Shown: piece by piece, positions 29,287 to 64,000 of the stretch | Numbering within the stretch: position 1 is the first letter of the stretch | How the letters are laid out: every line of letters begins with the position of its first letter | The notes under the pieces: model-generated | Told to the model about the DNA's origin: nothing | What the model saw: only the letters and a program-made list of their open reading frames with translations | Databases searched by the model: none | Source: Candidatus Micrarchaeota archaeon | Lineage (GTDB): Archaea; Micrarchaeota; Micrarchaeia; Anstonellales; Bilamarchaeaceae | Assembly (NCBI GenBank): GCA_018812625.1 | Contig: JAHJDH010000033.1 | Coordinates: 3,622 to 67,621 of the forward strand | Direction: 5' to 3' | Length of the DNA: 64,000 nt | Made by a program: the position numbers and the translations under genes

Positions 29287-29373
29287 TGTGTACACCTAAT
29301 TAGTAGGTTGATAATTGTTATATATTGTTTTTAAACTTGCCCATTGCCATTAATTATTAGTTTTGGTGCAAAA

Positions 29374-29979
29374 ATGGAAGTAATTATACGAGGTTATCTC
29401 CCAGAAGATGGGGCTGGAATTGTCCGCATTTACAAAAATGCCCTTGAAACTTTGAGGAAAAGCAAGGGTGGAGATCATGATGATTATTCCATAGACAAAA
29501 TTCTTAGTGGATCAGATAAAAAGATATTATCTGATCTTTTTTGCAGAAATGATATTGTTCTTGTTGCTGATGCAGAGGGTATTCCAGTTGGCTTTACAAG
29601 CTTTTCAAATCGTTTGATTGACAAAATTCTCAAGAGTACTTATGGTTCCAATATCTATGTTGCCAAAGAGTTTCAAAGAGGGAAAATCGGAGTCAATGTC
29701 GGCAGAATGCTAGTTAGTGAAAGAAAGAGACTAATGAGTAAAATGAACTATCGGAAGTACTACTCATACTCAACTCCTGAATCTGTTGCATTTGGAAAGA
29801 AATGCGGAGTTAAATACTATCCAGCACACAATACATATTCATTGAACAGTTCCTTGGCACTGCACTATTATGAGTTTATATTGCGTCCAAGTTTTCTCAA
29901 TAAGATAAGAATTGAGCCTTATCTCTTTGAGCTTAGCATTTTGTTTGGGAAAGCACTTGGCAAACTTAAAGGAAGATGA
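29374..29979 (+). CDS. GNAT-family N-acetyltransferase
   Basis: Motif A-like YVAKEFQRGKIGVNVGRMLV. The ATG at 29374 follows GGTG; the track start 29344 is a TTG. Confidence 0.65.
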   Translation: MEVIIRGYLPEDGAGIVRIYKNALETLRKSKGGDHDDYSIDKILSGSDKKILSDLFCRNDIVLVADAEGIPVGFTSFSNRLIDKILKSTYGSNIYVAKEFQRGKIGVNVGRMLVSERKRLMSKMNYRKYYSYSTPESVAFGKKCGVKYYPAHNTYSLNSSLALHYYEFILRPSFLNKIRIEPYLFELSILFGKALGKLKGR

Positions 29980-29980
29980 C

Positions 29981-31249
29981 ATGAATCCTCTTGAAGTACT
30001 CTGGCAGTTTTTTATTCTTCGATCTGAACAGTGGAAAACTCCGGATGAGCTTGAGGTGATTCAGGCAAAAAAACTCAATCAAATCCTATTATCTGCATCC
30101 AAAACAGAATTTTACAAAAATCTGCTTTCTGGCGTTTCCCTAGATAATTTCCATGGGCTTCCCTTGACCTCCAAAGAAGATATTCAAAAAAATCCCAAAT
30201 CATTTCTCAATCCTGAAATTCCAATTGCAGCATGTACCAAAACCTCAGGCTCAACTGGAACTCCGATGAGTATATCCCTGGATAATGCCTCTGTAGTTCA
30301 TGCCATTGCAATGCGCGCTCTATCTACAACTGAATTTGGTTTTGGCCCTCTTGATAAATTTGCAATTTTTGGAGTTGACAGAAAGCCTGCTCCAATTTAT
30401 CGTTCTTTTCTCGGAACTTATCAGCCTCTTTTCTTCTCAATTTTTGATGATCCATCAAAGAACTACGAATATCTTCAAAAATCAAAAGCCAACATAATCG
30501 GCTGGTATCCTTCGACAATAACAAGCCTTGCCAGAATCAATGCCGAGTCTGAGAATCCGATCAAGCTCAAGGCAGCATTCTGCGGTGGCGAGCCTTTGAC
30601 TAATGCTGCCCGTAAATTCATCTCTGATTCATTTTCCTGCGAAGTGTTTGATCACTATGGACTTGCTGAATTTTCAACAGTGGCCTTTGAATGCCCGAAG
30701 CATAATCTTCATGTCAATACAAGTTTGCTGGTTGAAATTGCAGATCAAAATGGAAAACCAATCCAAAGCGGTGTTGGGCAAGTCGTGATCACTTCTCTTC
30801 ATAACAAGGCAATGCCTCTTCTTCGCTATGCAACAGGTGATTTTGCCAGCTTTGGAACTTGTTCCTGTGGCAGAGGCTCCAAAGTACTGAAATCTGTTCA
30901 TGGCAGAAAGGATGATCTGATTGTTCTTCCAAGCGGCAGGGTCTGCTCTGCTCTTAACATCAACAGGATGGATGATCTTACATATCTCCTTGAATTCAAA
31001 ATAATTCAGGAAAAGGAGGACCTCTTTGTCTTTCATTATGTTCCAAATGGTGAAGATATTTCTGCTTCCCAGAAAAAAGAAATCACTGATCTGATACAAA
31101 AAGGATGTTTGGGCGAAACAGTCTCTGTAGAATTTGAAAAATATATTTCTCTCAAAAAAGACAAATCCGGCAAACTGAGTACAGTTGTTTCCAAGATCGT
31201 TCCAAAGGAAAATGTTGAGTATAAAATATGGAATTCTGATGATCATTAG
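29981..31249 (+). CDS. PaaK/coenzyme-F390-synthetase-like adenylate-forming ligase, paralogue 1
   Basis: Phosphate loop TSGSTGTPM, CSCGRGS motif, and C-terminal DKSGKLSTV (ANL catalytic lysine region). It is closest to the copy at 52755-54014. Confidence 0.8.
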   Translation: MNPLEVLWQFFILRSEQWKTPDELEVIQAKKLNQILLSASKTEFYKNLLSGVSLDNFHGLPLTSKEDIQKNPKSFLNPEIPIAACTKTSGSTGTPMSISLDNASVVHAIAMRALSTTEFGFGPLDKFAIFGVDRKPAPIYRSFLGTYQPLFFSIFDDPSKNYEYLQKSKANIIGWYPSTITSLARINAESENPIKLKAAFCGGEPLTNAARKFISDSFSCEVFDHYGLAEFSTVAFECPKHNLHVNTSLLVEIADQNGKPIQSGVGQVVITSLHNKAMPLLRYATGDFASFGTCSCGRGSKVLKSVHGRKDDLIVLPSGRVCSALNINRMDDLTYLLEFKIIQEKEDLFVFHYVPNGEDISASQKKEITDLIQKGCLGETVSVEFEKYISLKKDKSGKLSTVVSKIVPKENVEYKIWNSDDH

Positions 31250-31304
31250 TGTTTTTAATTTTGTTATATTAACTCTGGTTAGACTATTTTTAATGGTGAA
31301 ATCT

Positions 31305-31796
31305 ATGGGAACAAAAGGAATTGAAATTGTTGGAATGGATGTTGGTGAGCTTATTGACATGCTCAACAAAGCTTTAGCAGATGAATGGCTTGCATATTAC
31401 CAGTACTGGGTTGGCTCTAAGGTAGTACAAGGACCAATGAGACCTCAAGTTGAAGCTGAACTTGTTGAACATGCTGAGGAAGAACTTAAGCATGCAAACA
31501 TGCTTGCAGAGAGGATAGTTCAATTGGGCGGAACTCCACTGCTTAGTCCTGATGAATGGAAAAAGAACTCAGGTTGCGGTTATGCAGCTCCAAGTGACCC
31601 TAATGTGAAAAAGATCCTTGAGCAGAACATAAAAGGCGAGCAATGCGCAATTGTTACTTATCACAAGATTCTTGAAGAAGTAAAATCAGGCAATGATCCA
31701 ATCACTTTCAATATGGTTCGAAAGATCATGGAAGATGAAGTTAAACATGAGCATGATCTACAAAGCATTCAGCAGGATATGAAAATATCCAGATAA
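31305..31796 (+). CDS. Dps-like / ferritin-like four-helix-bundle protein
   Basis: LNKALADEWLAYYQYW..EHAEEELKHANMLAERI..GEQCAIVTY..MEDEVKHEHDL carry di-iron ExxH-type ligands. The ATG at 31305 lies 5 nt after GGTGA. Confidence 0.85.
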   Translation: MGTKGIEIVGMDVGELIDMLNKALADEWLAYYQYWVGSKVVQGPMRPQVEAELVEHAEEELKHANMLAERIVQLGGTPLLSPDEWKKNSGCGYAAPSDPNVKKILEQNIKGEQCAIVTYHKILEEVKSGNDPITFNMVRKIMEDEVKHEHDLQSIQQDMKISR

Positions 31797-49129: not shown

Positions 49130-49819
49130 TTACCAGTGTTTTAACTTGAATTTAATCAGACTAATACCCATCATAAATCCATCTCTAAGAAGATTGAATT
49201 TGGATGTTCCAGCTTCATTCCATTCAATTGGGATTTCTTTTATTTTCAGTTTCTTCCATTGGGCTCTAACTAAAAATTCAGCATCAAAGAACCATCTTTG
49301 ATCATCTATTTTTTCAAAAATACCAACTGCTTCTTTTCTCCTGAATGCCTTGAACCCGCACTGGTGATCTGAGATTTTTGACCCCAAAAGAAGGCGCACC
49401 AGCCAGTTGAAGCATTTGCTTGCAACATGCCTAAAAAAATCTCTTGATGTTTTTGATCCTTTAAGATATCTGGATGCAACTACAATGTCTGCTCCTTCTT
49501 TGATGGGAGCAATGAGTTTTTCCAGGAATTTAGGTTCTGATGCAAGATCTGCATCCATAAAGATTATGATATCTCCAGTTGCAAATTTTGCTGATCTGAT
49601 AATTGATGCTCCTTTTCCTAATCTTTTTTTACTATGAAGAAGCCTGATTTGCGAATTCTCGAGTCTTTTTGCAATCTCAACTGTTTTATCCGTGCTTCCG
49701 TCTTCACTGATAATTATCTCTGTTTTTTCAGGTATTTTGGCAAGTATCCGCTCAATCTGTTTAACTGTAGCCTCTAGTATTTTCTCTTCATTGTAAACTG
49801 GGAGGATTACAGAGATCAT
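49130..49819 (-). CDS. family 2 glycosyltransferase (dolichyl-phosphate sugar synthase-like)
   Basis: ISVILPVYNEE..IIISEDGSTDKT..FMDADL..QCGFKAF, the typical GT2/DPM1-like pattern. Confidence 0.85.
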   Translation of the reverse strand: MISVILPVYNEEKILEATVKQIERILAKIPEKTEIIISEDGSTDKTVEIAKRLENSQIRLLHSKKRLGKGASIIRSAKFATGDIIIFMDADLASEPKFLEKLIAPIKEGADIVVASRYLKGSKTSRDFFRHVASKCFNWLVRLLLGSKISDHQCGFKAFRRKEAVGIFEKIDDQRWFFDAEFLVRAQWKKLKIKEIPIEWNEAGTSKFNLLRDGFMMGISLIKFKLKHW

Positions 49820-49877: not shown

Positions 49878-50645
49878 TCAGCTTATTTTTCCAAGAACTG
49901 TCGCAATGGTCTCCAAAGTCTTGAGAATCAAAATCCCTATCATAAGAATTGGCTTGCTATAGAATCTCTTATTTGCAAAAAACAATTTCAATCTATAAAA
50001 AACGCTTGTGTGTTTGGATCTTGTTGCAGTTTTTCCATAATAGTACTTTTTCTTGAGCCATTTTCCAAGTTTAAATCCTTCTTCGTGATGCAGTATTCTG
50101 GATTTAATTCTGGTTCTAACATCAAATCCAAGTTTTTCTATTTTATCAGGTAGGGCTGCTTCTTCAAAAAATATCACTTCCTCATCGAATCCGCCGGCTT
50201 TCCTTGCTGTTTCCAATCTGAAAAATCTTGCTGATTCAATTGTGCTTCCAGAATAAAAACTGCGTTCATAGTCTCTGACTTTGACCCAGAATGTTTTTCC
50301 AATACTTCTCTCTGGGATAACCACGCCTCCAGTTTTTGGGCTCATCCTCTCTACACATTCACTGATTACATGTTTCTCAAGTTCCATATCCGAGTCAATA
50401 AAAAAAATATATTCTCCTTTGGCATTAGCTATTCCAATATTCTTTGCCTTGGCTCTCTCTCCTTTATCCAGAATTAGTTTGGCAGAATATTTTTTTGCAA
50501 TTTTTCCTGTTTTATCATGGGAAAACTTATCAACAACAATAATTTCTATTTTATCATAACTTTGTCCTTTGATGGACTCTAGACATCTGGAAATTTCCTT
50601 CTCACTATTGAATGTAGGAATAACTACAGAGACAAGCTCTCCCAT
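49878..50645 (-). CDS. family 2 glycosyltransferase
   Basis: VSVVIPTFNSE..IIVVDKFSHDKT..FFIDSDMELE. Confidence 0.85.
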   Translation of the reverse strand: MGELVSVVIPTFNSEKEISRCLESIKGQSYDKIEIIVVDKFSHDKTGKIAKKYSAKLILDKGERAKAKNIGIANAKGEYIFFIDSDMELEKHVISECVERMSPKTGGVVIPERSIGKTFWVKVRDYERSFYSGSTIESARFFRLETARKAGGFDEEVIFFEEAALPDKIEKLGFDVRTRIKSRILHHEEGFKLGKWLKKKYYYGKTATRSKHTSVFYRLKLFFANKRFYSKPILMIGILILKTLETIATVLGKIS

Positions 50646-50696
50646 GATCAGACTTATGCTCCTGTTCTTTTAAAACTAATCTTGAATTATTACCCC

Positions 50697-51455
50697 ATGC
50701 CTAAAACTGATGAGGAAGCAATAACATTGTTTCTCAATGATTTTGTTAATCAGCTGACCTCTATCTATCCTTCTGAAATCCAATATATAATATTAGCTGG
50801 AAGCGCATCCAGGGGAGATTTTGTCTTAGGCAAAAGCGATCTTGATATGGGCATAATCATCAAGGAAACAAAAAATGTTGCTAAGGTGAAGAAGTCTGCC
50901 CTTGAAATCTTTTGGAAGCTTGATGCGAAGCAAAATATGAAATTTAAACAGTCTCTTAGTGTTCCAAATGGGCAGTATAAGCCTCCATTTGATGTTGTTG
51001 GGCCAGAAGGAAACCCAAAAAAAAGAGATCTGTTTGCACTAATCTCTCCATTTTTCGGGTATCAAAGGGCAATGCTCCAACATACGGTTCGCTATGGAAA
51101 AATTCTCTATGGGGATGATTCCGTGCTCAAGCTCTTCAAAAAAAGATATTCGAAATGGGGCCTATTCAAGATCCTCTTCTCATATGACTTGTTTCTCTCA
51201 ATATTTTCTGTTTTTTCTTTTTTCATAGATCCAGATCAATCACTAAGAAGATCAACGCGTGCTCTTCTCTATACTTTCGAGGATGATCTCTCCCACCCAT
51301 TATTCAAGAAAGCAAGTCTAACAAGGCTTAATTTTGACAAGATCATCAAGGAATGGTCTGTTTGGAGAAAGTTCTCATTTTGTCTATCTGTCCCGTTTAG
51401 TGTTCTCTCAAAAATAATCTCAGAAGTGTGGAAAAGGTTTAAAATTATTTTTTAG
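50697..51455 (+). CDS. nucleotidyltransferase-domain (Pol-beta superfamily) protein
   Basis: ILAGSASRGDFVLGKSDLDMGIII is the GS..x..DxD motif. A TATA-like TTTTAAAACT lies about 25 nt upstream of ATG 50697. Confidence 0.65.
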   Translation: MPKTDEEAITLFLNDFVNQLTSIYPSEIQYIILAGSASRGDFVLGKSDLDMGIIIKETKNVAKVKKSALEIFWKLDAKQNMKFKQSLSVPNGQYKPPFDVVGPEGNPKKRDLFALISPFFGYQRAMLQHTVRYGKILYGDDSVLKLFKKRYSKWGLFKILFSYDLFLSIFSVFSFFIDPDQSLRRSTRALLYTFEDDLSHPLFKKASLTRLNFDKIIKEWSVWRKFSFCLSVPFSVLSKIISEVWKRFKIIF

Positions 51456-51495: not shown

Positions 51496-52707
51496 ATGCG
51501 AATTCCTCATACTCTCTGGCGGATTCTTGAACTTAAAAGAAACCAGTGGAAAAGCCAGGATGAATTTGAAGAAATGCAGCAGGAGCAATTAGTAAAGCTT
51601 GCAGATCACGCTTCACTAAATGTCCCATACTACAAGAATTTGAAAATCCGGGATATTGATGATCTTGCAGATCTTCCATCTCTAACCAGATCTGATTTTC
51701 TCAAAAATAAAGACTCTCTTATCAGCAGGACTGCCAATATGAATGACCTGATTGTAAGAAAAACTTCCGGATCATCCGGAACACCAATGAAGGTTCTTAT
51801 TGATTCAAAAGAGAATACGTATAGAAGCGCAAATAGCTATTATGCATTTTCTGAAGCTGGCATGAACCTATTAGATGATGTGGTGTTTATCTCCCATGCA
51901 TTAAGTTCGCCGCCAAGGTCTGCTTTTGTCAATTATCATTTCTTTGATATTCTGGAAACTGAAAGGGATCTGCTGCGCCAAATAAAAAAAATCAATCCAA
52001 ATATCCTTTGGGCGTATCCAAGTATTTTGGTTCTTCTTGCAAACAGAAATCAGAAGGAATCTTTCAATATCTCAATACCTCGGATATTTACTCAGGCCGA
52101 AATTCTCTCAGCTCCTGCAAGAGAGCTGCTAAAGCGTTCCTTTAATTCAGAAATCAGCGATTTTTATGCTTCTATGGAATTTGGAAGAATTGCATGGGAA
52201 TGCGAAGAAGGAAGCATGCATCTTTTATCCGATTCAATGATTGCAGAGGTTCTGGATCCTAGCGGAAAACCAATAAAAAATGGAAAACCTGGGAGGCTGG
52301 TCCTGACCCAGCTCTTCAAATATGCCATGCCGCTAATTCGCTATGAAATTGGAGATGAAGTTTCTATTGGAACAAAATGCAAATGCGGAAGAGGATCTCA
52401 CATCATATCATCAATCAAAGGCAGGCTCAATGTTCATGTAGTTCTGCCCAGTGGAAATCTTTATCCAGCAACATTCGTAGATACACTTCTTCGAAACCTG
52501 CCAAACCTTCTTGAATTTCAAATAGTTCAAAAGTCCAGGGACCTTCTGCTCATAAATGTAATTGAATCAAAACCAATGGATCCCAGCCAAATTGCAAAAG
52601 CAATCAATCTCGCAATGCCAGAGCCCATGGATATAGAAGTTGCTTTTGTTGATTCAATCAAAAGGGACAGATCCGGGAAATTCACTCATCTTATCTCTGA
52701 ATTATAA
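51496..52707 (+). CDS. PaaK/F390-synthetase-like adenylate-forming ligase, paralogue 2
   Basis: TSGSSGTPM, WECEEGSMHLLSD, CKCGRGS and DRSGKFTHL. It is closest to paralogue 4. Confidence 0.8.
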   Translation: MRIPHTLWRILELKRNQWKSQDEFEEMQQEQLVKLADHASLNVPYYKNLKIRDIDDLADLPSLTRSDFLKNKDSLISRTANMNDLIVRKTSGSSGTPMKVLIDSKENTYRSANSYYAFSEAGMNLLDDVVFISHALSSPPRSAFVNYHFFDILETERDLLRQIKKINPNILWAYPSILVLLANRNQKESFNISIPRIFTQAEILSAPARELLKRSFNSEISDFYASMEFGRIAWECEEGSMHLLSDSMIAEVLDPSGKPIKNGKPGRLVLTQLFKYAMPLIRYEIGDEVSIGTKCKCGRGSHIISSIKGRLNVHVVLPSGNLYPATFVDTLLRNLPNLLEFQIVQKSRDLLLINVIESKPMDPSQIAKAINLAMPEPMDIEVAFVDSIKRDRSGKFTHLISEL

Positions 52708-52754
52708 TGCTCGGGCACGTCAGCGTTTTAAATTTCATCATTCATAGCCTAATT

Positions 52755-54014
52755 ATGGACTCCTCCTTTTTTCAAAGGCTGAAAATCTTTCTTTCTATAA
52801 GGCAGCAGCAATGGCAGTCCAAAGAAGATCTTGAAAAGATACAAATGAAAAAATTGCTTGAAACTCTGAATTCAGCTAGAAAAACCAAATTTTATGGAGG
52901 TGCTCTGGCCAAGTTCAAAAATAACGATCTTCTTGATGATTTATCTCACTTTCCAATAACCAGCAAAACAGATCTCTCAGCAGCACCAGAGGATTTCCTA
53001 AGAAGCAGTCTCGACAAATCAAAACTCATAGTAGAAACCACATCCGGCTCAACAGGAATTCCAAAAAAACTTTTTTTTGATTCGTATACTACTAATTATC
53101 GTGCTGCCCTTCTTGCCATGATACAGCTTGAATTCGGCAGAAGTCCATTTGATCTTTATGCAGAAGTCTCGCTAAAGACTCCGCCTCCATTTCCTCTTTC
53201 ATCACTAGGTCTTTATAGAAAATTATATCTTCCTCTTCTTGATGATGAAGAAAAGACATTTTCAACACTAAATGAAAAAAAGCCGGATATTCTTGCCTGG
53301 TACCCCTCAATGCTCACAATGATGGCAAAGATAAACGATGACAATGGAAATCCACTCAAGCTCAAAAAAGCATTTTCTGGCGGGGAACTACTAACAGGCC
53401 CATCAAGAAAGCTCATTGAAGATTCTTTTTCCTGCCAGGTGTTCAACCAATATGCTGCAACTGAAGTTGGTGCAATAGCATTTGAATGTCCGGAAGAGCA
53501 CAGTTTTCATATAAACTCAAATTCAGCTCTTGTTGAAATTGTGGATGATCAGGGAAATCCCAAAGAACAAGGGGTAGGTAGAATCATTATTACAAGCCTC
53601 ATTAATCAGTCCATGCCACTAATTCGCTATGATATTGGAGACCTTGGCAGCTGGGGAGGGGAATGTTCCTGTGGACGTGGTTTGCCAACTCTGGAATCAA
53701 TATCAGGGAGGGCCGATGACCTTGTTGTCCTTCCAAGTGGCAAAGTCAGATCAGCGCGTCACATCATTCCGCTGGATTTTCTGGACTCAGTAAAACAATA
53801 TCAGATTATTCAGGAATCTGAAGATCGCTTCACATTCAGGTATGTGCCAGCCAAATCTTCACTTTCACAGAAAGCACAGGAATATTTTGAAAATCAGATT
53901 CGTACCGGATGCCTTGGCGAGGATATTCATGTGGATTTTGAATCTGTGGATTCTATCAAACGCGGTAAAAGCGGAAAGCTGAGGAAAGTTATTTCTAAGC
54001 TCACAAAGAAATAA
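52755..54014 (+). CDS. PaaK/F390-synthetase-like adenylate-forming ligase, paralogue 3
   Basis: TSGSTGIPK, CSCGRGL and GKSGKLRKV. It is closest to paralogue 1. An alternative start at 52707 overlaps the previous stop (TAATG). Confidence 0.8.
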   Translation: MDSSFFQRLKIFLSIRQQQWQSKEDLEKIQMKKLLETLNSARKTKFYGGALAKFKNNDLLDDLSHFPITSKTDLSAAPEDFLRSSLDKSKLIVETTSGSTGIPKKLFFDSYTTNYRAALLAMIQLEFGRSPFDLYAEVSLKTPPPFPLSSLGLYRKLYLPLLDDEEKTFSTLNEKKPDILAWYPSMLTMMAKINDDNGNPLKLKKAFSGGELLTGPSRKLIEDSFSCQVFNQYAATEVGAIAFECPEEHSFHINSNSALVEIVDDQGNPKEQGVGRIIITSLINQSMPLIRYDIGDLGSWGGECSCGRGLPTLESISGRADDLVVLPSGKVRSARHIIPLDFLDSVKQYQIIQESEDRFTFRYVPAKSSLSQKAQEYFENQIRTGCLGEDIHVDFESVDSIKRGKSGKLRKVISKLTKK

Positions 54015-54060
54015 TATTATAATAAGGAAACCAGATAGTCTAGTTATCGAAGGTGGGCGA

Positions 54061-55269
54061 ATGCTGGAATTATCAATGATGCTTGCGAAGTTAAAGCTGA
54101 ATCAATGGAAAAGCGAGGATGAATTCAAGCAGATCCAGGAGCAGAAATTCAAGCAGCTTTTTTCCTATGCTAAAGAATATTCGCCTTACTACCGAAAAAC
54201 TCTGAAAGATTGCACGTTTTCTAATCTTGAGGATCTTCCTAATCTTCCACTAACTATGAAAAAATCACTACAGAGCGCTCCAGATGATTTTCTCAGCTCA
54301 AAATTTACTAAAAAATCTCTTATAAAATCATCGAGCTCAGGATCTACAGGAGTTCCAGTAGATATCTATCATGATAGGAGCGAGGCTCATTTTGGTCCTG
54401 GCTTTGAGCTTCATCAATTTACTGAAGCAGGAGTCAATCCCTTTGACAGCCAAATCCGCATAACCCACAATGACTACAAACAAAATTTCATCCAGAAACT
54501 TGGCATCTTCAGAAGAAAACACCTTCCGTTTTCCAATTCTCCGCAAAAAAATCTCCAAATCATAAAGCACGGACCGCAGAAAGTTCTGATTGGCTTTACA
54601 TCTGTTTTAGTTCCTCTTGCAAGAGCAAATCTGGAGACTCGCGCAAAAGCAAAAATAATCTTTACTTCTGGGGAAGTGCTCTCTGAATCTGATCGTAAAT
54701 TAATCAGCGAATCTTTCTCCTGCCCTGTCCGTGATATGTATGGATGCGTTGAAACTTCCTGGATCGCATGGGAATGCGAAGAAGGCAGCATGCATCTGTT
54801 TTCTGATTATCTGATTGCTGAAATTGTTGATGATGACTATCGTCCCACAAAAGGCTCTGGAAACATAGTAATCACTCCCCTCTGGAAACGATCAATGCCT
54901 CTTATCCGCTATTTCCTGACTGATCAGACTGCTATAGCAAAAAGGTGCAAATGCGGAAGGGGCTCTACTGTTATCAAACCAGTAATCGGAAGGGATGATG
55001 ATTTCATTGTTCTAAAAAACGGTTCAAAACTTTCTCCTGCTGTCATCTCATGCGCATTGAATGATGTTAATGTTAAGGAATACCAAATAGTGCAAAATGC
55101 AATTGATGATTTTGTCTTTAAGTATGTCCCGGCCAAGGGACTTGACCTTGTCAATCTCAAGAAAATTTTCAAAGATCAAATAGGCGATGCAAATATAGAA
55201 TTTGAGGAATTGGATAAAATTAGCTGTACCAGGACAGGGAAAAGGAAAAAAATCATTACCAGGATCTAA
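54061..55269 (+). CDS. PaaK/F390-synthetase-like adenylate-forming ligase, paralogue 4
   Basis: SSGSTGVPV, WECEEGSMHLFSD, CKCGRGS and TRTGKRKKI. An AGGTGG SD is present. Confidence 0.8.
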   Translation: MLELSMMLAKLKLNQWKSEDEFKQIQEQKFKQLFSYAKEYSPYYRKTLKDCTFSNLEDLPNLPLTMKKSLQSAPDDFLSSKFTKKSLIKSSSSGSTGVPVDIYHDRSEAHFGPGFELHQFTEAGVNPFDSQIRITHNDYKQNFIQKLGIFRRKHLPFSNSPQKNLQIIKHGPQKVLIGFTSVLVPLARANLETRAKAKIIFTSGEVLSESDRKLISESFSCPVRDMYGCVETSWIAWECEEGSMHLFSDYLIAEIVDDDYRPTKGSGNIVITPLWKRSMPLIRYFLTDQTAIAKRCKCGRGSTVIKPVIGRDDDFIVLKNGSKLSPAVISCALNDVNVKEYQIVQNAIDDFVFKYVPAKGLDLVNLKKIFKDQIGDANIEFEELDKISCTRTGKRKKIITRI

Positions 55270-56398
55270 TTTCTTCTCTTATCATTTCTTTTGTTTTTTC
55301 TGATCTTTTCCTCACCATCTTAAAATTTTCAGAGATCAAAATGCCAATTTCATTTCGCTTTTCTATTTTGCCCATTATTTTCTCAATATCTATTTCATCC
55401 ACTTTGCTCCAGCTATCTTTAGCAAAATCTCCAAGAACTTCTTTGAACTTGAATGTATTTCCAATTGCAAAGAAGGGCGTTGCGGAAAGTGTTCCAAGAA
55501 CAAGAGGATGCATCCTGCTGGATATTATGAATTCTGACCCTGCAACTAGTGCAGCAACCTCATCTGGATTCTGAACTATTCCAATTGACTTTGCATTGCT
55601 TTTTTCTGCAAGAATCTTGTTTATTTCAACATCTGCCCCGTTTGCAGGCATAAATACAACCTGAAATCCGGATTTTGCCACTTTTTTGCTAAGTTCTATC
55701 ATACTGCTGGCATATCTCTTGGACTTCACATTCTCAGCGCAAAATATCACTCTTTTTTCTCTTTTTGTTTTTTCTGGCTGTTTATATGTGAAAACAATAT
55801 CAGCTGTCAGTTTTGCTTTTTTCACTCCAATTTGTCTTAGAAGCCTGGCACTTTTCTCCTCACGAACAAAGATCAGATCAGCCATGTTCAAAAATAATGA
55901 AGCAAAGTTCCCATTCAAAAGCCCTTCGAAAGGCCCGAATGTTTGAGGAAGTATGATGATCTTCTTTTTTAGTATTTTTGCAAATAAAAACTCGCTAAAT
56001 GTTGTAACAAATCCGTATTTGGGACTTATAAAATCCCCTCCAGGACTGATCAAAACATCACAATTGAAAAATTCAATCAATGGTTTTTCAAATTCCCTGT
56101 TGAATAAAAAAAACTTTTTTCCGATGAAGCGGAAAACCAGTACTGATAGGATGTGAGATCCATATATGAACGGATAATTTAGTATGTCCAATCTGCTTTT
56201 CTTTTTAACTGGCCATGGCCATCTTTCAAGTTTTACATCCACTTCAGGGCATTTTTTTCTAGTGAATTTTGGATCTGATACCAATGCAGTTATTTCTGAT
56301 TTTGGAACAATCTCTCTCATCCATCTAATCGAAGTCTTGAGCAGTGCCATATCTCCGACATTTGGACTCCAAGAATGAGGTATGAGTATCTTCATCAC
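55256..56398 (-). CDS. polysaccharide pyruvyl transferase family protein
   Basis: N-terminus HSWSPNVGDMALL and C-terminus FIISSRMHPLVLG resemble the CsaB/WcaK family. It sits in glycan-locus context. Confidence 0.65.
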   Translation of the reverse strand: MMKILIPHSWSPNVGDMALLKTSIRWMREIVPKSEITALVSDPKFTRKKCPEVDVKLERWPWPVKKKSRLDILNYPFIYGSHILSVLVFRFIGKKFFLFNREFEKPLIEFFNCDVLISPGGDFISPKYGFVTTFSEFLFAKILKKKIIILPQTFGPFEGLLNGNFASLFLNMADLIFVREEKSARLLRQIGVKKAKLTADIVFTYKQPEKTKREKRVIFCAENVKSKRYASSMIELSKKVAKSGFQVVFMPANGADVEINKILAEKSNAKSIGIVQNPDEVAALVAGSEFIISSRMHPLVLGTLSATPFFAIGNTFKFKEVLGDFAKDSWSKVDEIDIEKIMGKIEKRNEIGILISENFKMVRKRSEKTKEMIREEIRSW

Positions 56399-56455: not shown

Positions 56456-58090
56456 ATGGATGATCTATCTCACTACTCAAAAGAAGTTGCCAAGGGCAGC
56501 CTTTGGAGTATGGCTGGAAGTGTTGTTTTCTACACATCTTCATTCTTTTATGTCATTTTGATAGCTCATGCACTGTCCCAAAATGATATTGGTCTTTTCT
56601 TTCTTGCACTAAGTATTGTTTCGCTTGGAGCAACATTCGATAATTTTGGCCTGGGCACTGCACTCTCTCGTTATGTGCCTTATTTTGAAGGGAAAGACGA
56701 GAAAGGAAAAATCAAGCCTCTTCTGAAACTAAGCTATTTGGTAGTTACCTTATCATCCATTGTTCTCCTGGTCATCTTCTGGTTTCTTGCAGATTTCATT
56801 GCATCAATTTATTCAAATCCAGCACTTGCAGGAACGATCCAGACACTTTCCATATTCTTTCTCTTTAGCAATATTTTCAATATTAATATCTCTTATTTGC
56901 GCGGAAGAACCAACATTCGTGCCATGCAATATTCAGCCAATCTTCAAAATCTTTCAAAGCTTATCCTAACTGCGTTTCTCTTCTATTTCTATGAAGCATC
57001 TCTTCTCACTCTTATTGCTGGTTTCCTTTCATCTTATGTAGTGAGCATCATCCTCTCATCCTTTTTTGTAATCAAAGATACATTTACTCTTCCAAAGAAT
57101 GAAACTCATTTTTCCGTTTCCAATTTTATATCAGAAATTGTTCCATTTGGTCTGATGCTGAGTTTAATTCATTCTGTCGGAACAATCTTTTCTTCTGCTA
57201 ATCGTATGCTCCTTGGATATATGGTAGATCCAATAGAATCTACTCAGGTAATTGCAATATATGCTGTGGCATTCACACTTGCGAATGTTCTGATGGCACT
57301 GCCTAAATCAATAGGGGATATTTTCCTTCCACTAATATCCCGTTTGTACGGTAAAAAGGAACTTGGTAAGATTTGTTCAATTACAACTACTGCTCAGCGA
57401 TGGTCTCTTTTCCTGACTATTCCATTCGGTATAATCATGATATTGTTCTCAGGAGACATACTTTCCTTGATGTATGGAGAGTCATATCGAAGCGGAGAAT
57501 TAGTTATGTCCATTCTCACTCTTGGAATACTTTTGAGTGTCGTCTCCTATGTGTTCTCTCTTTCCCTGGCAGCGATGAAGCTTGTAAAAATTCAGCTTTT
57601 AATTGCAGTTGTCTCAGGTGCTATAAATCTTACTTCAAGTGCCATACTCATCATGATGTTTGGCATGGTTGGCTCAGCAATTGGTTCGTTTATTGGTTTT
57701 ATCATAAGTATCCTTTTGCTAAGTTATTATGCAAAGAAATACTTCAACTTCAAATTCTCTTCAAAAGTACTCAAATTGGCTGTTTCGGGAGTTTTGGTCA
57801 TGGTCATCATGCTCCTAATCCGTCCCTATTTGCTCTCATTCTTTGGCATTTTTCCAGAAACTGAGGCAATGGGAGTTGGTCTTTATATTTCAAAAATAAT
57901 CCTGATGGGCTATATGGCTGTTTTGGCAAGCATCTCAATGTTCTTCTTTTTGATTTTTGCTCTTATTCTGAAATGCGTTTCACAAGAAGACGTTTCTCTT
58001 TTAGGACAAGCAATGATGAAAGCAAGGGTGCCAAAACCACTTATCAAATTCACAAAAGATCTTGCATCCTATGGCGTCGGGGCGGACTAA
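56456..58090 (+). CDS. Wzx-like oligosaccharide flippase (MOP superfamily)
   Basis: 544 aa with about 14 predicted TM helices and a KGSLWSMAGSVV N-terminus typical of polysaccharide-biosynthesis (Wzx) proteins. Confidence 0.75.
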   Translation: MDDLSHYSKEVAKGSLWSMAGSVVFYTSSFFYVILIAHALSQNDIGLFFLALSIVSLGATFDNFGLGTALSRYVPYFEGKDEKGKIKPLLKLSYLVVTLSSIVLLVIFWFLADFIASIYSNPALAGTIQTLSIFFLFSNIFNINISYLRGRTNIRAMQYSANLQNLSKLILTAFLFYFYEASLLTLIAGFLSSYVVSIILSSFFVIKDTFTLPKNETHFSVSNFISEIVPFGLMLSLIHSVGTIFSSANRMLLGYMVDPIESTQVIAIYAVAFTLANVLMALPKSIGDIFLPLISRLYGKKELGKICSITTTAQRWSLFLTIPFGIIMILFSGDILSLMYGESYRSGELVMSILTLGILLSVVSYVFSLSLAAMKLVKIQLLIAVVSGAINLTSSAILIMMFGMVGSAIGSFIGFIISILLLSYYAKKYFNFKFSSKVLKLAVSGVLVMVIMLLIRPYLLSFFGIFPETEAMGVGLYISKIILMGYMAVLASISMFFFLIFALILKCVSQEDVSLLGQAMMKARVPKPLIKFTKDLASYGVGAD

Positions 58091-59349
58091 TCAATTCCAT
58101 ATCCTAATGTTTTTATGTTTCTACTTGAGATTATTCCAATGACAACCAGAAACAATGATGAAACTACAACTGATGGAACCAGAATCAGCATGATTAACAT
58201 TCCAAAAATTATGCCAATTTTTCCTCTGTCCTTGTATAGCTCATAAGTTTTTTCATCGCCCTGAAGATATGCGCTTTTTGCCATTAACATAATTGGCAAA
58301 TGAATCCTTTCATATCTCTTGACAAAGACTACTGTTTTCCCAAAATATTTTTTGAAGTCCTGGAAAAATAATAATGATTTCATGGGCCATCTTATTAGTC
58401 TTGGAAAACCTGCAAAAATTGAACCGTAGCGCAATTTGCTTGGATCTGAGGATTTATCGACAACTACATCCAAGCTTTTTTTCTTGTACTCTACTACTAT
58501 AACATCATCAGCAGCTGGGATTTTTTTATTGCCAAATTCCATCAGCGATCCATTTATCATTGCACTTACGATTCCCTTTGCACGTTCATTCTTCCTAAAT
58601 ATTAAGAAGGAAGTAGCGCCAGTCAGATGAAAAAAACAAAACAAAAATGCTCTTGCATAATTTCCAAGAAGCAGCCATGCTTCAAAACCACCGCGTGAAT
58701 ACAGATATCTTTTTTGTGTATTGTCTGTCAAGGGCATTTCCAATAGTTCATGGTATGTTGTTGCTTCAGTGTGCTCAACATTAATCCCCATCTTCTTTAT
58801 CCTTTCAATCATCTCTACATCGTCCCCTCCGAAAAAAAGAGGGTAGAATGGCAAGCCTGATTTTCTCAATATTTTTTGTGGGATGCAAGAATAATGGAAT
58901 ACATATTCATGTTGAATTTTTTCCTTGTCACGTCTCCATTTAGGTATGGCAATAGTATTTTCTTTTTGTACTCTGCGAACGAGTTCCTCAACAAGTGTTT
59001 CTGAAACAGGAAAACAATCATCGTCTGCAGAAATGATATTCTCATAGCCTTCATCAAGTGCAGTTTTCTGTCCAATGTAAAAAGCTCCTGCACACCCATT
59101 TCTCCCCTTTTCTTTTATGTGCAAAATATCCTCTGGAGCCCCGTCCAAAAAATTGTCATTTTCACCATAAACAATGATTATGTCGAAATCTTTGAATGAT
59201 TGTTTTTCAAGAAGATCAAGATGTTTTTTCAAAACTTCTGGATTCTGATAAGTAGCAATGACTATGGCTGTTTTTGCATGATTCCCCTTTCTCCTGTCAA
59301 TTTTTTTCGAGATGATGCTCTCCAGTTTTGGGGCTGATAAATCTTTCAT
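58087..59349 (-). CDS. family 2-like glycosyltransferase with a C-terminal membrane anchor
   Basis: AIVIATYQNPE..FDIIIVYGEND..ISADDDCFP, with a C-terminal TM. Confidence 0.7.
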   Translation of the reverse strand: MKDLSAPKLESIISKKIDRRKGNHAKTAIVIATYQNPEVLKKHLDLLEKQSFKDFDIIIVYGENDNFLDGAPEDILHIKEKGRNGCAGAFYIGQKTALDEGYENIISADDDCFPVSETLVEELVRRVQKENTIAIPKWRRDKEKIQHEYVFHYSCIPQKILRKSGLPFYPLFFGGDDVEMIERIKKMGINVEHTEATTYHELLEMPLTDNTQKRYLYSRGGFEAWLLLGNYARAFLFCFFHLTGATSFLIFRKNERAKGIVSAMINGSLMEFGNKKIPAADDVIVVEYKKKSLDVVVDKSSDPSKLRYGSIFAGFPRLIRWPMKSLLFFQDFKKYFGKTVVFVKRYERIHLPIMLMAKSAYLQGDEKTYELYKDRGKIGIIFGMLIMLILVPSVVVSSLFLVVIGIISSRNIKTLGYGID

Positions 59350-59664
59350 TTATTCCCTCTTTTGAATCAGTTCAATAAATAAACTTGCTATTCCAGCGAG
59401 CATGATCCAGTATGTTGCTATTGCAAATTCTTTGTTGTCTGTTATTACTGCAATTAAAAAAATCATAATTCCGATCCAAACTGGCTTTTTTCCATCCAGA
59501 TTTCTTTTATAAAAAATGAAAACAAGAACTGCAGATATGATGGCACTTATAATTTCGCTTTGAAACAAATTGATCATGAACCAGGCAATAGCTGGCCAGA
59601 TGTACTGTTCGTTTTTGTAAATCAAATCACGTATCTTTTTCTCTTCTATGATCATTTGTCCCAT
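59350..59664 (-). CDS. small hypothetical membrane protein
   Basis: 104 aa with three hydrophobic spans, abutting the flanking genes in the same operon. Confidence 0.5.
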   Translation of the reverse strand: MGQMIIEEKKIRDLIYKNEQYIWPAIAWFMINLFQSEIISAIISAVLVFIFYKRNLDGKKPVWIGIMIFLIAVITDNKEFAIATYWIMLAGIASLFIELIQKRE

Positions 59665-62027
59665 CTCTTCAGAACATAAATACTGCCAAGTATGACTGTC
59701 AGGATACTTATGCCCATTCCCATCTCAAATGAATCCTGGGAAGCGTATCTCATAGTGATCTCAAGCTCTCCAGTCTCATCTATCCAGTACCCATTCATCT
59801 GTCCGTATAATTTAATCGGCTTTATCACTTTGCCATTCATTCTAAGCTCCCAAAACTTTGAATATTTTTCCGCAAATCCAAGAAGGAATGGCTTTGACGA
59901 ATCAATTTTTACTGTCCAAAGTGTTGGGTTTATTCTTTCATACTCAATTATCCTGGCAATGCCAGTATTGTTTTGGAACTCTGGTTTTTCAGATAGGCTG
60001 ACAAAATCCAAAACAGAATGGTTTCCAATACTGATACTGAGGTTGTATTCTCCTTTTTCTAGCTGTATCTCTCCTCCATCAATATTTGCTAGGGATTCCG
60101 ATTCAAGATTCATGCTCCTATTAGATATGTCAACTTCGAAAGAACCCTTTCCATGTACCACAAGCTCATATGTGCCATTTCGCTCTATCTGAACTGTTCT
60201 TGAGATTATTATTGTTCTATTTGAACTCTCAATATAACTAGTATTTTTTCTATGTTTATTGTAATTAAAATCATATTCTGCTTCGAATAGGAAAATGGAA
60301 TATTGACTATCATTAGCTGATTTTGTTTTATCGCTAACTATGAATTTTGTGTGATTTTCTTCACTGGAAGTTATTGCAAAATTCTCTGGTTGGATCTTTA
60401 CAGCAGAATATATCTCTTCATCTGCTGCAAGGACAGTTCCTTCGTAAACTGAAAATGGCATTGTTTCTTTTCCGTCAGTACAAATTACAATGTCCTTATC
60501 AGCTTTACAATCCCAACCTTCATTCTTTGCATCATTGCCGAATCTTAAAATCTGATGAATATTCAATACATCGAGCAATTCATGCGGAGCATCTCTAAGC
60601 TCTTTAATGCTACCATATGTAGAGACCGTTCCTTCAAAATTTGGACGTGTTATCTGTTTTTTCTGGCCAAAAATATCTATTACAGGTACTTCTAAGTCTC
60701 CTCCCAGATAAAATACTACCTTGTTCTCTTTTGGTATCTCATCTATCATTTTCCAGTTTTCATCCAGATATGCTGCTGCATAATTTTCTCTAAGATATAC
60801 TGTACCAGGAGACAAAAGGATATTTACAAGCAGCATTACTAAGAATCCTCCAATCAAGATCTGTTTTTTTGGTCTTTGGATTTTGTTTAATCCGATTGTA
60901 ATTATAACTATCAAAAATGCCGGTATGATGATACTTATCCTTGCCCATTCTCTCATGGGTCCAAGAAGTTGTGCTAACCCAATCCCAGCAATAATATCAA
61001 TCATATATGATAAAATTTCATTATGGTGGCCTCTAGCTAGAAAAATCACGGCAAAAATCCCCATCATGAAAATCACCGATAATTGTTTCTCCTTACTGCC
61101 TAACTTTTGGTATGAAAGAACGAAAATTATGAAGCTGATTGCAAACAATCCAAATCCAGAATATCTAAATAATATATTTCTAAAAATCAAATAATCCGGT
61201 ACCTGCGGCCACCAATTATTTGAAAAAGCAAATAAATTCAGTATCTCTCCATGTTTTGATAGATATTCAAAACTGTCTTTTGTTACTGTTCTTGGGTATC
61301 CCAATTCCAGATCCTTAGCCAGTAAAAATGAGGGGGCATTTAGAAGTACAAAAATTACAAGAGGCACAAAAAAGAATTTTATTGTCTCTTTTTTATCTCT
61401 AAAATATGCATAGATGGTAATGCCAACGTGGAATACTAACATGTACAAAAACGAGTGCGGTAAAAATCCGAACACTCCAAATAACAAACAATACCCAAAC
61501 AGATGAACCATCTTCCTATTAGTCAGATACTGAAGGCCCAATTGGATAAACATAGGAAAAATTGCATATGTGTACCATATCCATATGTGGCTAATTCGCT
61601 CTACTGACCAGAGATTAAGGAAATAAAAAGGTATTAGCAAAATGATCATTATTGCAGACTGTCTATCATTTTTTTCAAAATGTCTTACTAATCGATATAT
61701 CCCAACACTTCCTATTATCATTGAAATCAGGATAAGTGCGCTTGTAAACTGCGCGTCTGAAAATTCAATAAATTCCGAGAGGATGCTCCACCCTCCAAGC
61801 AGCACAAATCTGTTTGTTGTCTGCCTTGTTCCCCCACCAAAAAAAGAGTATATGCTTATGTCCTTTCTTATCTCTCCTGATCCAGAGCCAACAATGGTGT
61901 TGATATCTCCATAAATGATCAAAAGTTCTGAATCCATTATCGGTGCTAGAACTGGATAAAAGTTGTAAATTACAAACATAAGTCCAAGAAAAAAAGCTAT
62001 GTAGCTAGCTTTATTCGAAAGTTGCAC
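59652..62027 (-). CDS. large polytopic membrane protein with an extracytoplasmic C-terminal domain (GT-C-like glycosyltransferase/polymerase candidate)
   Basis: 791 aa with about 12 N-terminal TM helices, a ~380-aa soluble domain and a terminal TM. No WWDYG AglB motif was found. Confidence 0.6.
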   Translation of the reverse strand: MQLSNKASYIAFFLGLMFVIYNFYPVLAPIMDSELLIIYGDINTIVGSGSGEIRKDISIYSFFGGGTRQTTNRFVLLGGWSILSEFIEFSDAQFTSALILISMIIGSVGIYRLVRHFEKNDRQSAIMIILLIPFYFLNLWSVERISHIWIWYTYAIFPMFIQLGLQYLTNRKMVHLFGYCLLFGVFGFLPHSFLYMLVFHVGITIYAYFRDKKETIKFFFVPLVIFVLLNAPSFLLAKDLELGYPRTVTKDSFEYLSKHGEILNLFAFSNNWWPQVPDYLIFRNILFRYSGFGLFAISFIIFVLSYQKLGSKEKQLSVIFMMGIFAVIFLARGHHNEILSYMIDIIAGIGLAQLLGPMREWARISIIIPAFLIVIITIGLNKIQRPKKQILIGGFLVMLLVNILLSPGTVYLRENYAAAYLDENWKMIDEIPKENKVVFYLGGDLEVPVIDIFGQKKQITRPNFEGTVSTYGSIKELRDAPHELLDVLNIHQILRFGNDAKNEGWDCKADKDIVICTDGKETMPFSVYEGTVLAADEEIYSAVKIQPENFAITSSEENHTKFIVSDKTKSANDSQYSIFLFEAEYDFNYNKHRKNTSYIESSNRTIIISRTVQIERNGTYELVVHGKGSFEVDISNRSMNLESESLANIDGGEIQLEKGEYNLSISIGNHSVLDFVSLSEKPEFQNNTGIARIIEYERINPTLWTVKIDSSKPFLLGFAEKYSKFWELRMNGKVIKPIKLYGQMNGYWIDETGELEITMRYASQDSFEMGMGISILTVILGSIYVLKRWDK

Positions 62028-62081
62028 ATCAGACTTCTTACAAATTCTTTTTTTTAAGCTTTAGTTATATATCAGTGTCAC

Positions 62082-63164
62082 ATGAAAATTGCTTTTTTTA
62101 ACTGGCGCGACATCAAAAATCCTTTTGCAGGCGGAGCAGAGGTTTATGTTCATCAGGTTATGAAGCATTTAACAGCACTTGGCCATGACGTTACTTTATT
62201 TACTTCCACTTTTCCAGGATCACCGGAGAAAGAAATTATTGATGGAGTTGTGCACGTTCGTTATGCAGGCAAATATCAGATTTTTTCCAATTCTTACTTT
62301 TGCTATAACAAATATATCAAAGGAAAATTTGATCTGATTGTTGAAAGCATAAATGCAATGCCTTTTTTCACTCCATTATTTGCTAAGGAGAAAGTAATTC
62401 CATTTATCCACCAGCTGACCAGGGAAAATTGGTATTCTGGAATCTGCTTTCCGATTGCTTTTTTTGGGTATCATTCAGAAGATCATCTTCTTCGTTTATA
62501 CAAAAAACTTCCAACAGTTGTTCCATCTGAATCTACCAGGGATGATCTTCGTTCGCTCGGGTTTCAAAATATTTCAGTAATTAAAGGGGCTGCAGATGTG
62601 CTGCCACATAAAGATTCCAAAGAAACCAATCCAACTCTTCTTTACCTTGGAAGACTTACATCATCCAAGCAAGTGGATCACGTTCTTCAAACATTCCGCA
62701 ATGTTCTAAATGATATCCCAAATGCAAAATTATGGATTGCCGGAAGAGGTCCAGAAGAATCCAAACTCAAGAAACTGGCAATTGATCTCAAAATTAATGA
62801 TTCTGTTAAATTTTTTGGATATGTCGATACGAAAAAAAAACCAGAACTTCTATCAAGAGCCCATATCATGCTTTTTCCTGCTGTTCGTGAAGGGTGGGGA
62901 CTTGTTGTTCTTGAAGCAAATGCATGCGGCACCCCGGTGATAGGTTATAATACATATGGGTTGAGAGATAGTATTATTGATGGAGTTAATGGTTTTCTGG
63001 TTGACAATGTCAAGTCCATGTCTGCCAAAGCAATTGAACTGCTCTCTGATACTAATAAAATAAATTCATTGTGCGAAAGTTCTTTGGAACACTCCAAAAA
63101 ATTTAATTGGGAAAAAACAACAGATGAATTTCGTTCTTTATTTGAAAGAGTGATTGCGAAGTGA
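62082..63164 (+). CDS. family 4 (GT-B, Glycos_transf_1) glycosyltransferase
   Basis: FFNWRDIKNPFAGGAEVY.. and the C-terminal FPAVREGWGLVVLEANACGTPVIG (E-x7-E region). Confidence 0.85.
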   Translation: MKIAFFNWRDIKNPFAGGAEVYVHQVMKHLTALGHDVTLFTSTFPGSPEKEIIDGVVHVRYAGKYQIFSNSYFCYNKYIKGKFDLIVESINAMPFFTPLFAKEKVIPFIHQLTRENWYSGICFPIAFFGYHSEDHLLRLYKKLPTVVPSESTRDDLRSLGFQNISVIKGAADVLPHKDSKETNPTLLYLGRLTSSKQVDHVLQTFRNVLNDIPNAKLWIAGRGPEESKLKKLAIDLKINDSVKFFGYVDTKKKPELLSRAHIMLFPAVREGWGLVVLEANACGTPVIGYNTYGLRDSIIDGVNGFLVDNVKSMSAKAIELLSDTNKINSLCESSLEHSKKFNWEKTTDEFRSLFERVIAK

Positions 63165-64000
63165 TTTTTTTGATAAAAAAGATTATAACATTGTCAATAT
63201 ATCTCATACTTTCTCTTCTGATAATATTCCCGATTCTGGGTCCGGGGTATTATCTTACTCTTGATATGCAATGGGGTCCTGAAACCTTTTCTCCTGATCA
63301 TTTTGGTAGCTTGTATGGCGAAGTATCCAACCCATATGGTGCATATCTCCCGTTTGAACTTGTTTTTGCAGCACTTGCTCAATTCGTCTCAGTTGAAGTT
63401 GTTCAAAAGCTATTGCTGTTATTTATCCTTTTTTTCTCTGGAGTTTCTGCTCACTATTCTTTGCCCTCGAAACTCGGAAACAATAGGTTTGTTGCTGGAT
63501 TTTTCTATTTATTGAATTCTTTTGTATTTGTCAGATTTCTTGCAGGGCATTGGAGTGTTCTATTATCATATGCATTTTGGCCATTTGCAATAAAGTACTT
63601 CTATGAATTTCTGGAAAAGCCTGGCGATAGATCTTCATTGGTAAAATGCGCACTTCTAACTTTCATTGCTTCAGTAAGCAGCCATGCACTTGCAATTCTT
63701 CTACTTGCATATGCCATTCTTTTCATTTTATACTATGTCATGAAAACAAAAGAACCTCAATTACTAATCAAAAGAACTGCGGCTCTTGGATTGATTATAG
63801 TTACACTAAACCTTTTCTGGATACTCCCAACCATCTTAACTTTTGATGAAACCTATTCTCTAACCAGCTCATCCTCTGATTATCTTGAAGATTTTGGCGC
63901 CCGTGCTAATGACATGTCTCTTGAACAATCTGTATTTTCGTTACATGGCTTTTGGAGAGGTGGATTTAGGCTTACAAAAGATTTTTTCGACCTTTGGTAT
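63161..64000 (+). CDS. 5' part of a polytopic membrane protein gene running off the window (second GT-C-like candidate)
   Basis: An open frame of 280 codons runs from GTG 63161 (overlapping the GT4 stop, GTGA) to the window end. It has multiple hydrophobic spans. It is absent from the ORF track because no stop codon is reached. Confidence 0.6.
   Translation, partial: MIFLIKKIITLSIYLILSLLIIFPILGPGYYLTLDMQWGPETFSPDHFGSLYGEVSNPYGAYLPFELVFAALAQFVSVEVVQKLLLLFILFFSGVSAHYSLPSKLGNNRFVAGFFYLLNSFVFVRFLAGHWSVLLSYAFWPFAIKYFYEFLEKPGDRSSLVKCALLTFIASVSSHALAILLLAYAILFILYYVMKTKEPQLLIKRTAALGLIIVTLNLFWILPTILTFDETYSLTSSSSDYLEDFGARANDMSLEQSVFSLHGFWRGGFRLTKDFFDLWY

Follow-up and report, generated by a model that had tools for sequence, protein, structure and literature searches.

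Why should an archaeon keep three ligase genes of one family side by side in a glycan locus, with a fourth copy some 20 kb away? This question is raised by a window of 64,000 nucleotides (positions 3,622 to 67,621 of contig JAHJDH010000033.1) from a Candidatus Micrarchaeota archaeon, the genome of which (GCA_018812625.1, here G000) is a 1.27-Mb assembly of 43 contigs, 85% complete, with ~1,200 genes. Judging by homologue names, its place in the Micrarchaeota (DPANN) is close to 'Candidatus Bilamarchaeum'. The four genes lie on the forward strand and encode putative adenylate-forming ligases: A (51496..52707, 403 aa), B (52755..54014, 419 aa) and C (54061..55269, 402 aa) in tandem, and D (29981..31249, 422 aa), which occupies a variable slot flanked by the genes for rpS12 and Mre11. 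B belongs to a long open reading frame (ORF) from 52707, its start being M17; the starts of B and D were set from homologue lengths. All four ORFs are intact at the coordinates given by the original prediction, which counted four paralogues; this is correct for the window, but the genome holds eight, with one further copy on each of contigs C19, C7, C21 and C42 (own_C19, own_C7, own_C21 and own_C42). A family hidden Markov model detected no other ANL enzymes in G000 beyond these eight. Ligases of the CapK/VpsH type are common in glycan loci; to our knowledge, their chemistry has never been shown in vitro, and the first genetic assignment dates from 2026. The explanation that we prefer, with middling confidence, is that the CapK-type ligases described here are an accessory glycan-tailoring set attaching amino-acid or acyl groups to a surface glycan.

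The family assignment was approached through profile, structure and domain searches. NCBIfam PaaK-like models (DVU_1553 family, FlxY, PaaK and F390-related) match ligases A-D with E-values of 1e-8 to 1e-46, all scores being far under the curated cut-offs, and the Pfam AMP-binding matches are weak. The AlphaFold model of B (pLDDT 92.9, pTM 0.89) predicts a two-domain PaaK-type fold. The top Foldseek matches of this model are BT_0428 (E = 1e-28), PaaK1 (E = 1e-25) and PaaK2, with TM-scores of 0.65-0.69, together with AjiA1, ClxA, NatL2 and 2-hydroxyisobutyryl-CoA ligase, the whole group spanning TM 0.6-0.69. According to the precomputed Pfam annotation, the CapK_C domain (PF27533) is present, along with PF00501, in the protein cluster of B itself (P0001) and in most homologues of both ligase clades, whereas the more distant, true PaaK-like matches carry PF14535 instead. 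Among the relatives, the protein P0172 is a fusion of a GT2 glycosyltransferase with CapK_C, and an outgroup locus has the order GT2, CapK-like ligase, Ugd (UDP-glucose dehydrogenase), glycosyltransferases (GTs). Judged from these comparisons, the ligases are best classified as CapK-like members of the PaaK-fold ANL branch, and not as PaaK proper or F390 synthetase. Some sources do annotate them as 'phenylacetate-CoA ligase', and the weak NCBIfam matches could be read in the same way, as catabolic phenylacetate/aryl-CoA ligases (PaaK proper) or coenzyme F390 synthetases. We consider this extremely improbable: the scores against PaaK proper are 61-67 bits with a cut-off of 646 (TIGR02155) and 77-88 bits with a cut-off of 700 (NF041878), about tenfold under the equivalog cut-offs; the F390 synthetase FtsA model (TIGR03335) gives 31-35 bits against 459, and the F390-synthetase-related model (TIGR02304) gives 52-87 bits against 252. 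The C-terminal domain is CapK_C and not PF14535, and no paa or IOR genes were noticed beside any copy.

The phosphate loop (P-loop), (T/S)SGS(S/T)G.P, reads TSGSSGTP in A, TSGSTGIP in B, SSGSTGVP in C and TSGSTGTP in D, and this A3 motif is also kept in the other four copies of the genome. The C-terminal A10 lysine stands in an SGK or TGK context in seven of the eight copies; own_C42 has GT-K, with an alignment gap before the Lys. This context is retained in the full-length copies from relatives, and G407 and K408 are invariant in the 53 aligned homologues over which invariance was scored. All eight copies, as well as the full-length ones sampled in relatives, thus have intact catalytic motifs, and the original prediction of four PaaK/F390/CapK-type ligases is borne out by the intact ORFs, the P-loop, the (S/T)GK lysine, C-x-CGRG and the NCBIfam matches. 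One detail of it has to be corrected. The A8 hinge G(R/K).DD had been called strictly conserved; GRxDD is found in B, C and D, but A has GRLNVH, the DD is also lost in several relatives, and the position varies across the family.

The C-x-CGRG motif, present in all four window ligases, is part of a set of four residues, C...H...CxC, which is invariant in the 53 homologues (C245, H252, C304 and C306 in B). The upstream Cys sits in (W/F)EC, the His follows six to seven residues later, and CxCG comes after it. In the phmmer alignment, WEC-eegsm-H and C-k-CG of ligase C fall onto qC-pegrm-H and C-g-CG of NatL2. In NatL2, Cys248, His254, Cys308 and Cys310 coordinate a structural zinc with tetrahedral geometry, at a distance of over 20 A from AMP (PDB 6SIW; PMC7204872), and the activity is lost with EDTA and regained with zinc (PMC7204872). 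The alignment suggests that the four residues match the known Cys3His structural zinc site of the NatL2 type and do not represent new catalysis. The original prediction had offered two roles for the Cys pair, metal binding or a thioester: the first agrees with the predicted zinc ligands, and the second was rejected, as the pair aligns with the structural ligands Cys308 and Cys310, far from the nucleotide. CxCG also occurs in BT_0428 (4R1L; as CPCGR), ClxA (9S3L) and AjiA1 (6WUQ), but not in PaaK1. Since these solved relatives differ in function, the motif is not special to the genes considered here, as had been supposed; by sequence it appears generic for a large branch of the family, with a known structural role. 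The question of the Cys motif can be regarded as settled in this sense. The original prediction had named two outcomes that would speak against it, a generic motif with a known role and pseudogenised or redundant copies, and the first of them is what was found.

The second is not. Pairwise identity of the eight copies is 29-47%, and they fall into two deep clades: clade I comprises A and C, and clade II comprises B, D and the four others. The proposed pairing of the first with the third gene and of the second with the fourth is therefore confirmed, A and C sharing WECEEGSMHL; despite the common clade and motif, these two are only 33% identical, and A is the most diverged copy. The ratio of nonsynonymous to synonymous substitutions (dN/dS), computed for A-D against orthologues in the two close relatives G001 and G002 (the latter with 98% identity in elongation factor 2, EF-2), is 0.12 for A, 0.11 for B, 0.06-0.12 for C and 0.11 for D, an overall range of 0.06-0.12. 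Ligases A-D are old, constrained genes under purifying selection, and very probably neither pseudogenes nor redundant copies.

In G002, stops and a frame change disrupt the orthologue of B (locus L053, G002:C3:34729-36031); those of A and C are intact. The broken gene is either a pseudogene or an assembly error. Taken as it stands, this disruption indicates that single copies can be lost, and it is the observation that would favor seeing a single duplicated ligase here, its copies being redundant or in decay and labor not being divided among them. We find that explanation very improbable, given the deep divergence, the low dN/dS and the intact catalytic motifs, as well as the conserved syntenic positions of several copies across distant congeners. 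The substrate side of the proteins argues in the same direction. Residues 235-239 of NatL2 touch its substrate (PMC7204872), and the positions matching them differ in every one of the eight paralogues. Across the eight copies, the residue ahead of the A5 Tyr is F, M, Q, H, Q, A, R or M, and the canonical Thr position is occupied by M, V, T, A, V, W, I or W. Such variation is compatible with different substrates. Given the age of the paralogues, their divergence, the purifying selection and the differences at these positions, distinct jobs appear more likely than redundancy.

If the copies have distinct jobs, do they belong to one system? Two genome samples were compared, the first consisting of 41 genomes, namely 25 sampled congeners and 16 genomes from other families of the order. 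Ligases were found in 8 of the 25 congeners, with 5-9 copies in each, in none of the other 17, and in none of the 16 genomes from other families. In a sample of 401 genomes from the phylum, only three genomes outside the genus gave one or two weak matches. Four neighboring families follow the ligases in the 41 genomes. A GNAT-like protein is encoded by all eight ligase-bearing genomes and by none of the 33 ligase-free ones, and it always adjoins a ligase; BKACE (PF05853), which also always adjoins a ligase, is found in seven of the eight carriers and in 0 of 33. The polysaccharide pyruvyl transferase is present in 8/8 and 1/33 (the exception being G020), and a nucleotidyltransferase-like (NTase-like) protein in 6/8 and 1/33. 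The idea that the carriers form a single subclade is contradicted by the EF-2 tree, on which G000, G001 and G002 form a clade with the ligase-free G020 as its sister, and the other carriers are located elsewhere. G020 has a syntenic glycan locus, with a 712-aa membrane protein, GT2, GT4, a 791-aa membrane protein, a 420-aa GT2 and the pyruvyl transferase, but the NTase-A-B-C run is absent from it. This distribution fits gain or loss of the ligase set as a whole, compatible with a common pathway. The behavior of the set is that of a single accessory unit on top of a conserved glycan pathway.

The glycan locus around A, B and C, likewise anticipated by the original prediction, is confirmed by its GT2 and GT4 glycosyltransferases, pyruvyl transferase and Wzx-like flippase. 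Upstream, two GT2 genes lie on the reverse strand (49130-49819 and 49878-50645; Pfam Glycos_transf_2). The co-directional NTase-A-B-C run is headed by the gene of a Pol-beta-type NTase-like protein (50682..51455, forward strand, 257 aa), which has a weak Pfam NTP_transf_2 match under the cut-off; paralogues of it are located near other ligase copies, for example own_C42. The pyruvyl transferase gene (55256..56398, reverse strand; Pfam PS_pyruv_trans, E = 1e-40; CsaB-like by NCBIfam) is convergent with C and overlaps it by 14 nt. It is followed by a Wzx/MATE-type glycan flippase on the forward strand (56456..58090; Pfam Polysacc_synt_3, MatE and MurJ). The rest of the locus core (58087..63164, mixed strands) encodes the 420-aa GT2 (reverse), the 791-aa multi-pass membrane protein (59652-62027, reverse), for which no Pfam match was found, and the GT4 (forward). 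The 712-aa multi-pass membrane protein is encoded on the forward strand at 63161-64000+. Both large membrane proteins could be polymerase or oligosaccharyltransferase-like parts, and both are kept in the ligase-free G020. In the relatives, the flippase family (F13) and the pyruvyl transferase recur beside ligase runs, as do ORFs that by eye look like CysN/CysD. Elsewhere in the window, a DegT/DnrJ/EryC1-type sugar aminotransferase (3497-4591, reverse strand; Pfam E = 3e-98) is encoded between the S3 and L14 genes, on the strand opposite to the ribosomal-protein run in which it stands.

The surroundings of the other copies are more diverse. A glycan-locus setting is found for A-C and own_C19; it is not evident for own_C7 and own_C42. 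Next to the own_C19 copy (region C19:1279-6350) are a GT2, a sulfotransferase confirmed by Pfam, and ORFs that by eye look like adenosine 5'-phosphosulfate (APS) kinase and ATP sulfurylase; this neighborhood suggests a sulfated glycan. The own_C42 copy (region C42:44381-47058) is preceded by a small S-adenosylmethionine (SAM) methyltransferase, a 379-aa protein without a Pfam match and a second NTase-like paralogue. The slot holding ligase D (28269-31796) contains genes for a 291-aa protein of no assigned family, the GNAT-like protein, ligase D and a Dps-like ferritin; in the ligase-free G024 (L048), the same slot is filled with three unrelated genes. The GNAT-like gene (29368..29979, forward strand) has its stop 2 nt ahead of the ligase D ATG. 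Its product has sub-threshold Pfam GNAT matches and no NCBIfam or PDB sequence match, so that it is placed by predicted fold only: in the AlphaFold model (pLDDT 86.7), the nearest Foldseek structures are amino-acid N-acetyltransferases of the ArsN/phosphinothricin/YncA type. A second GNAT-like gene, a CapK-like ligase and a BKACE gene make up the own_C21 module (C21:10644-13431), and GNAT-ligase-BKACE modules recur in congeners. Four loci of relatives (L011, L012, L014 and L016, in G006, G021, G022 and G018) have ORFs read by eye as proB, proA and proC interleaved with ligases, and some of the four also hold a GNAT-like gene, BKACE and a Glu-type dehydrogenase, the last again read by eye. Proline biosynthesis was considered as a general part of the system and rejected: proA and proB were not found in G000.

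These modules give the strongest competing explanation, that a small-molecule pathway employs some or all of the copies, above all those of clade II beside GNAT and BKACE, as true acyl-CoA ligases. In it, an acid would be converted to its CoA ester, BKACE would interconvert beta-keto acid and acyl-CoA, and the GNAT would move the acyl group to an amine, the product being a free metabolite, for example an N-acyl amino acid or a solute, in place of a substituent on a glycan. The adjacency of GNAT-like protein and ligase in all eight carriers and of BKACE and ligase in seven of them is what such a pathway would produce, as is the interleaving of by-eye proline-type genes and a Glu-type dehydrogenase with ligases, GNAT and BKACE in relatives. 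The resemblance of the GNAT model to amino-acid N-acetyltransferases points the same way, and so does BT_0428, the nearest homologue with a solved structure, which was deposited under the name of a putative acyl-CoA ligase. Set against this are the lack of proA and proB in G000, by which the proline link is not general, the C-terminal CapK_C domain in place of the PaaK-type PF14535, the small number of GNATs (one or two for five to nine ligases) and a pattern of presence and absence that the ligases share with the pyruvyl transferase and the glycan locus. For the clade II copies, the acyl-CoA explanation fits the evidence nearly as well as glycan tailoring does; taken over the whole set, we think it somewhat unlikely.

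The GNAT-like protein itself might also be read differently. AcuA and Pat regulate AMP-forming CoA synthetases by acetylating the catalytic lysine, and a partner of this kind would silence the ligases through acetylation of the A10 lysine. The perfect co-distribution of the GNAT with the ligases, one of which it always adjoins, would be expected of such a regulator, and its targets would be at hand, the eight ligases being the sole ANL enzymes detected in the genome and many copies having a P-x4-GK-like A10 context. The closest structures are nevertheless small-molecule amino-acid N-acetyltransferases and RimI/Ard1, not AcuA, and protein acetylation seems an improbable role.

We therefore return to glycan tailoring and to the way in which it might proceed. 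ATP would be bound at the P-loop and a carboxylate adenylated with the assistance of the C-terminal A10 lysine; the acyl group would then be passed to an amine or hydroxyl, directly or through CoA, to give an amide or else an ester. The NTase-A-B-C run would have been bolted onto the conserved glycan-assembly locus, and its products would decorate a lipid-linked or nascent glycan with amino-acid or acyl substituents. The target would be a pyruvylated, probably sulfated glycan on the cell surface. Different paralogues would serve different acid/amine pairs, and production or N-capping of the substituent would fall to the separate GNAT-ligase(-BKACE) modules. The amide-on-glycan product, the substrates and the division of labor among the paralogues are inferred.

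Several observations weigh against this explanation. UDP-sugar 6-dehydrogenase (PF03721) was not found in G000, G001 or G002. The pathway is thus left without its classic uronic-acid acceptor, unless the ~15% of G000 that was not assembled supplies it. Four of the eight copies are outside obvious glycan loci: own_C7 and own_C42, and also D and own_C21, which stand beside GNAT or BKACE. GNAT and BKACE are CoA-dependent enzyme types, which favors true CoA-ligase chemistry for at least some of the copies. None of the solved relatives that share the zinc site makes a glycan amide, their products being aryl esters or CoA thioesters, and the case for VpsH is a genetic one. As the dehydrogenase is absent from all three genomes, uronic-acid amidation in particular is doubtful here, and it is weakened as the specific reaction. 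The carboxylate could instead be that of the pyruvate ketal, or a free acid could be joined to an amino sugar; the presence of the DegT-type sugar aminotransferase is compatible with the amino-sugar route. N-acylation of an amino sugar and amidation of the pyruvate-ketal carboxylate would be the variants more compatible with the gene content.

A bolder version can be imagined, in which one genus of Micrarchaeota has evolved a set of 5-9 stand-alone zinc-containing CapK-type ligases, a dedicated GNAT and a BKACE, spread over several loci but kept or lost together. They would form a thiotemplate-free, mix-and-match amide toolkit, building stepwise a multi-part, N-capped substituent derived from amino acids or beta-keto acids on the pyruvylated, sulfated surface glycan, for which the pyruvate-ketal carboxylate could be the anchor. 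We regard this as rather unlikely; if true, such decoration could shape how episymbiotic cells attach to their hosts. The non-ribosomal oligomer suggested by the original prediction has nothing pointing to it, no carrier protein or condensation enzyme having been seen.

Eight genes together with GNAT, BKACE and pyruvyl transferase, out of ~1,200, are a large outlay on surface tailoring, which suggests that the decoration matters for a host-dependent DPANN lifestyle. The eight small, diverged and intact paralogues, along with congeners that have the glycan locus without the ligases, amount to a compact test set from which the substrate rules of this family could be derived.

Among the characterized or solved proteins, the best matches in sequence (E = 1e-26) and in structure are BT_0428 of B. 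thetaiotaomicron (4R1L/4R1M/4RVN/4RVO) and PaaK1 and PaaK2 of B. cenocepacia (2Y27/2Y4N/2Y4O). BT_0428 shares the CPCGR motif, whereas PaaK1 and PaaK2, enzymes of the paa catabolic pathway, have no CxC pair; from these two the ligases of G000 are also separated by a different Pfam C-terminal domain and by the tenfold shortfall from the equivalog cut-offs. NatL2 (6SIW-6SIZ, 6TM4), AjiA1 (6WUQ) and ClxA (9S3L/9S45) have the same fold and the same Cys3His ligands as the proteins described here, and they show that the PaaK-type branch can transfer an acyl-adenylate to a non-CoA nucleophile. The catalytic lysine of NatL2 works in trans (PMC7204872). A literature search found no paper for PDB 9S3L, and the entry was identified as ClxA by Foldseek. 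These three enzymes act on aromatic amino-hydroxy acids in benzoxazole pathways, within secondary-metabolite clusters and with an amidohydrolase partner; no such partners are present here, and the identity to them is only about 20-23%. For AglU of Methanococcus maripaludis, a possible archaeal precedent (threonine on ManNAcA), the literature search gave nothing usable, and it is not used in the argument.

The closest system by description is VpsH (VC0924) of V. cholerae. By genetic evidence, VpsH is needed for the glycine amide on a sugar acid, GulNAcA, in the lipid-linked repeat unit of the Vibrio polysaccharide (VPS), the assembly of which can do without it (PMC13463779). As in G000, the VpsH/CapK-like protein is a PaaK-fold adenylate-forming ligase inside a Wzx/GT glycan locus, and the CapK_C domain of CapK-like capsule-locus proteins is also the one assigned to the ligases here. 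The dispensability of VpsH for assembly has its parallel in the G020 locus, which is ligase-free but otherwise syntenic. The differences are those of number and company: VpsH/CapK loci have a single copy or one per GT, whereas G000 has eight diverged paralogues, including the tandem of three. Unlike those loci, it also has a private GNAT-like partner and BKACE, and no Ugd was found in it. The enzymes are thus of a known, CapK-like kind, and what is new is their eight-fold expansion with a private GNAT-like partner, all-or-none in one genus of Micrarchaeota.

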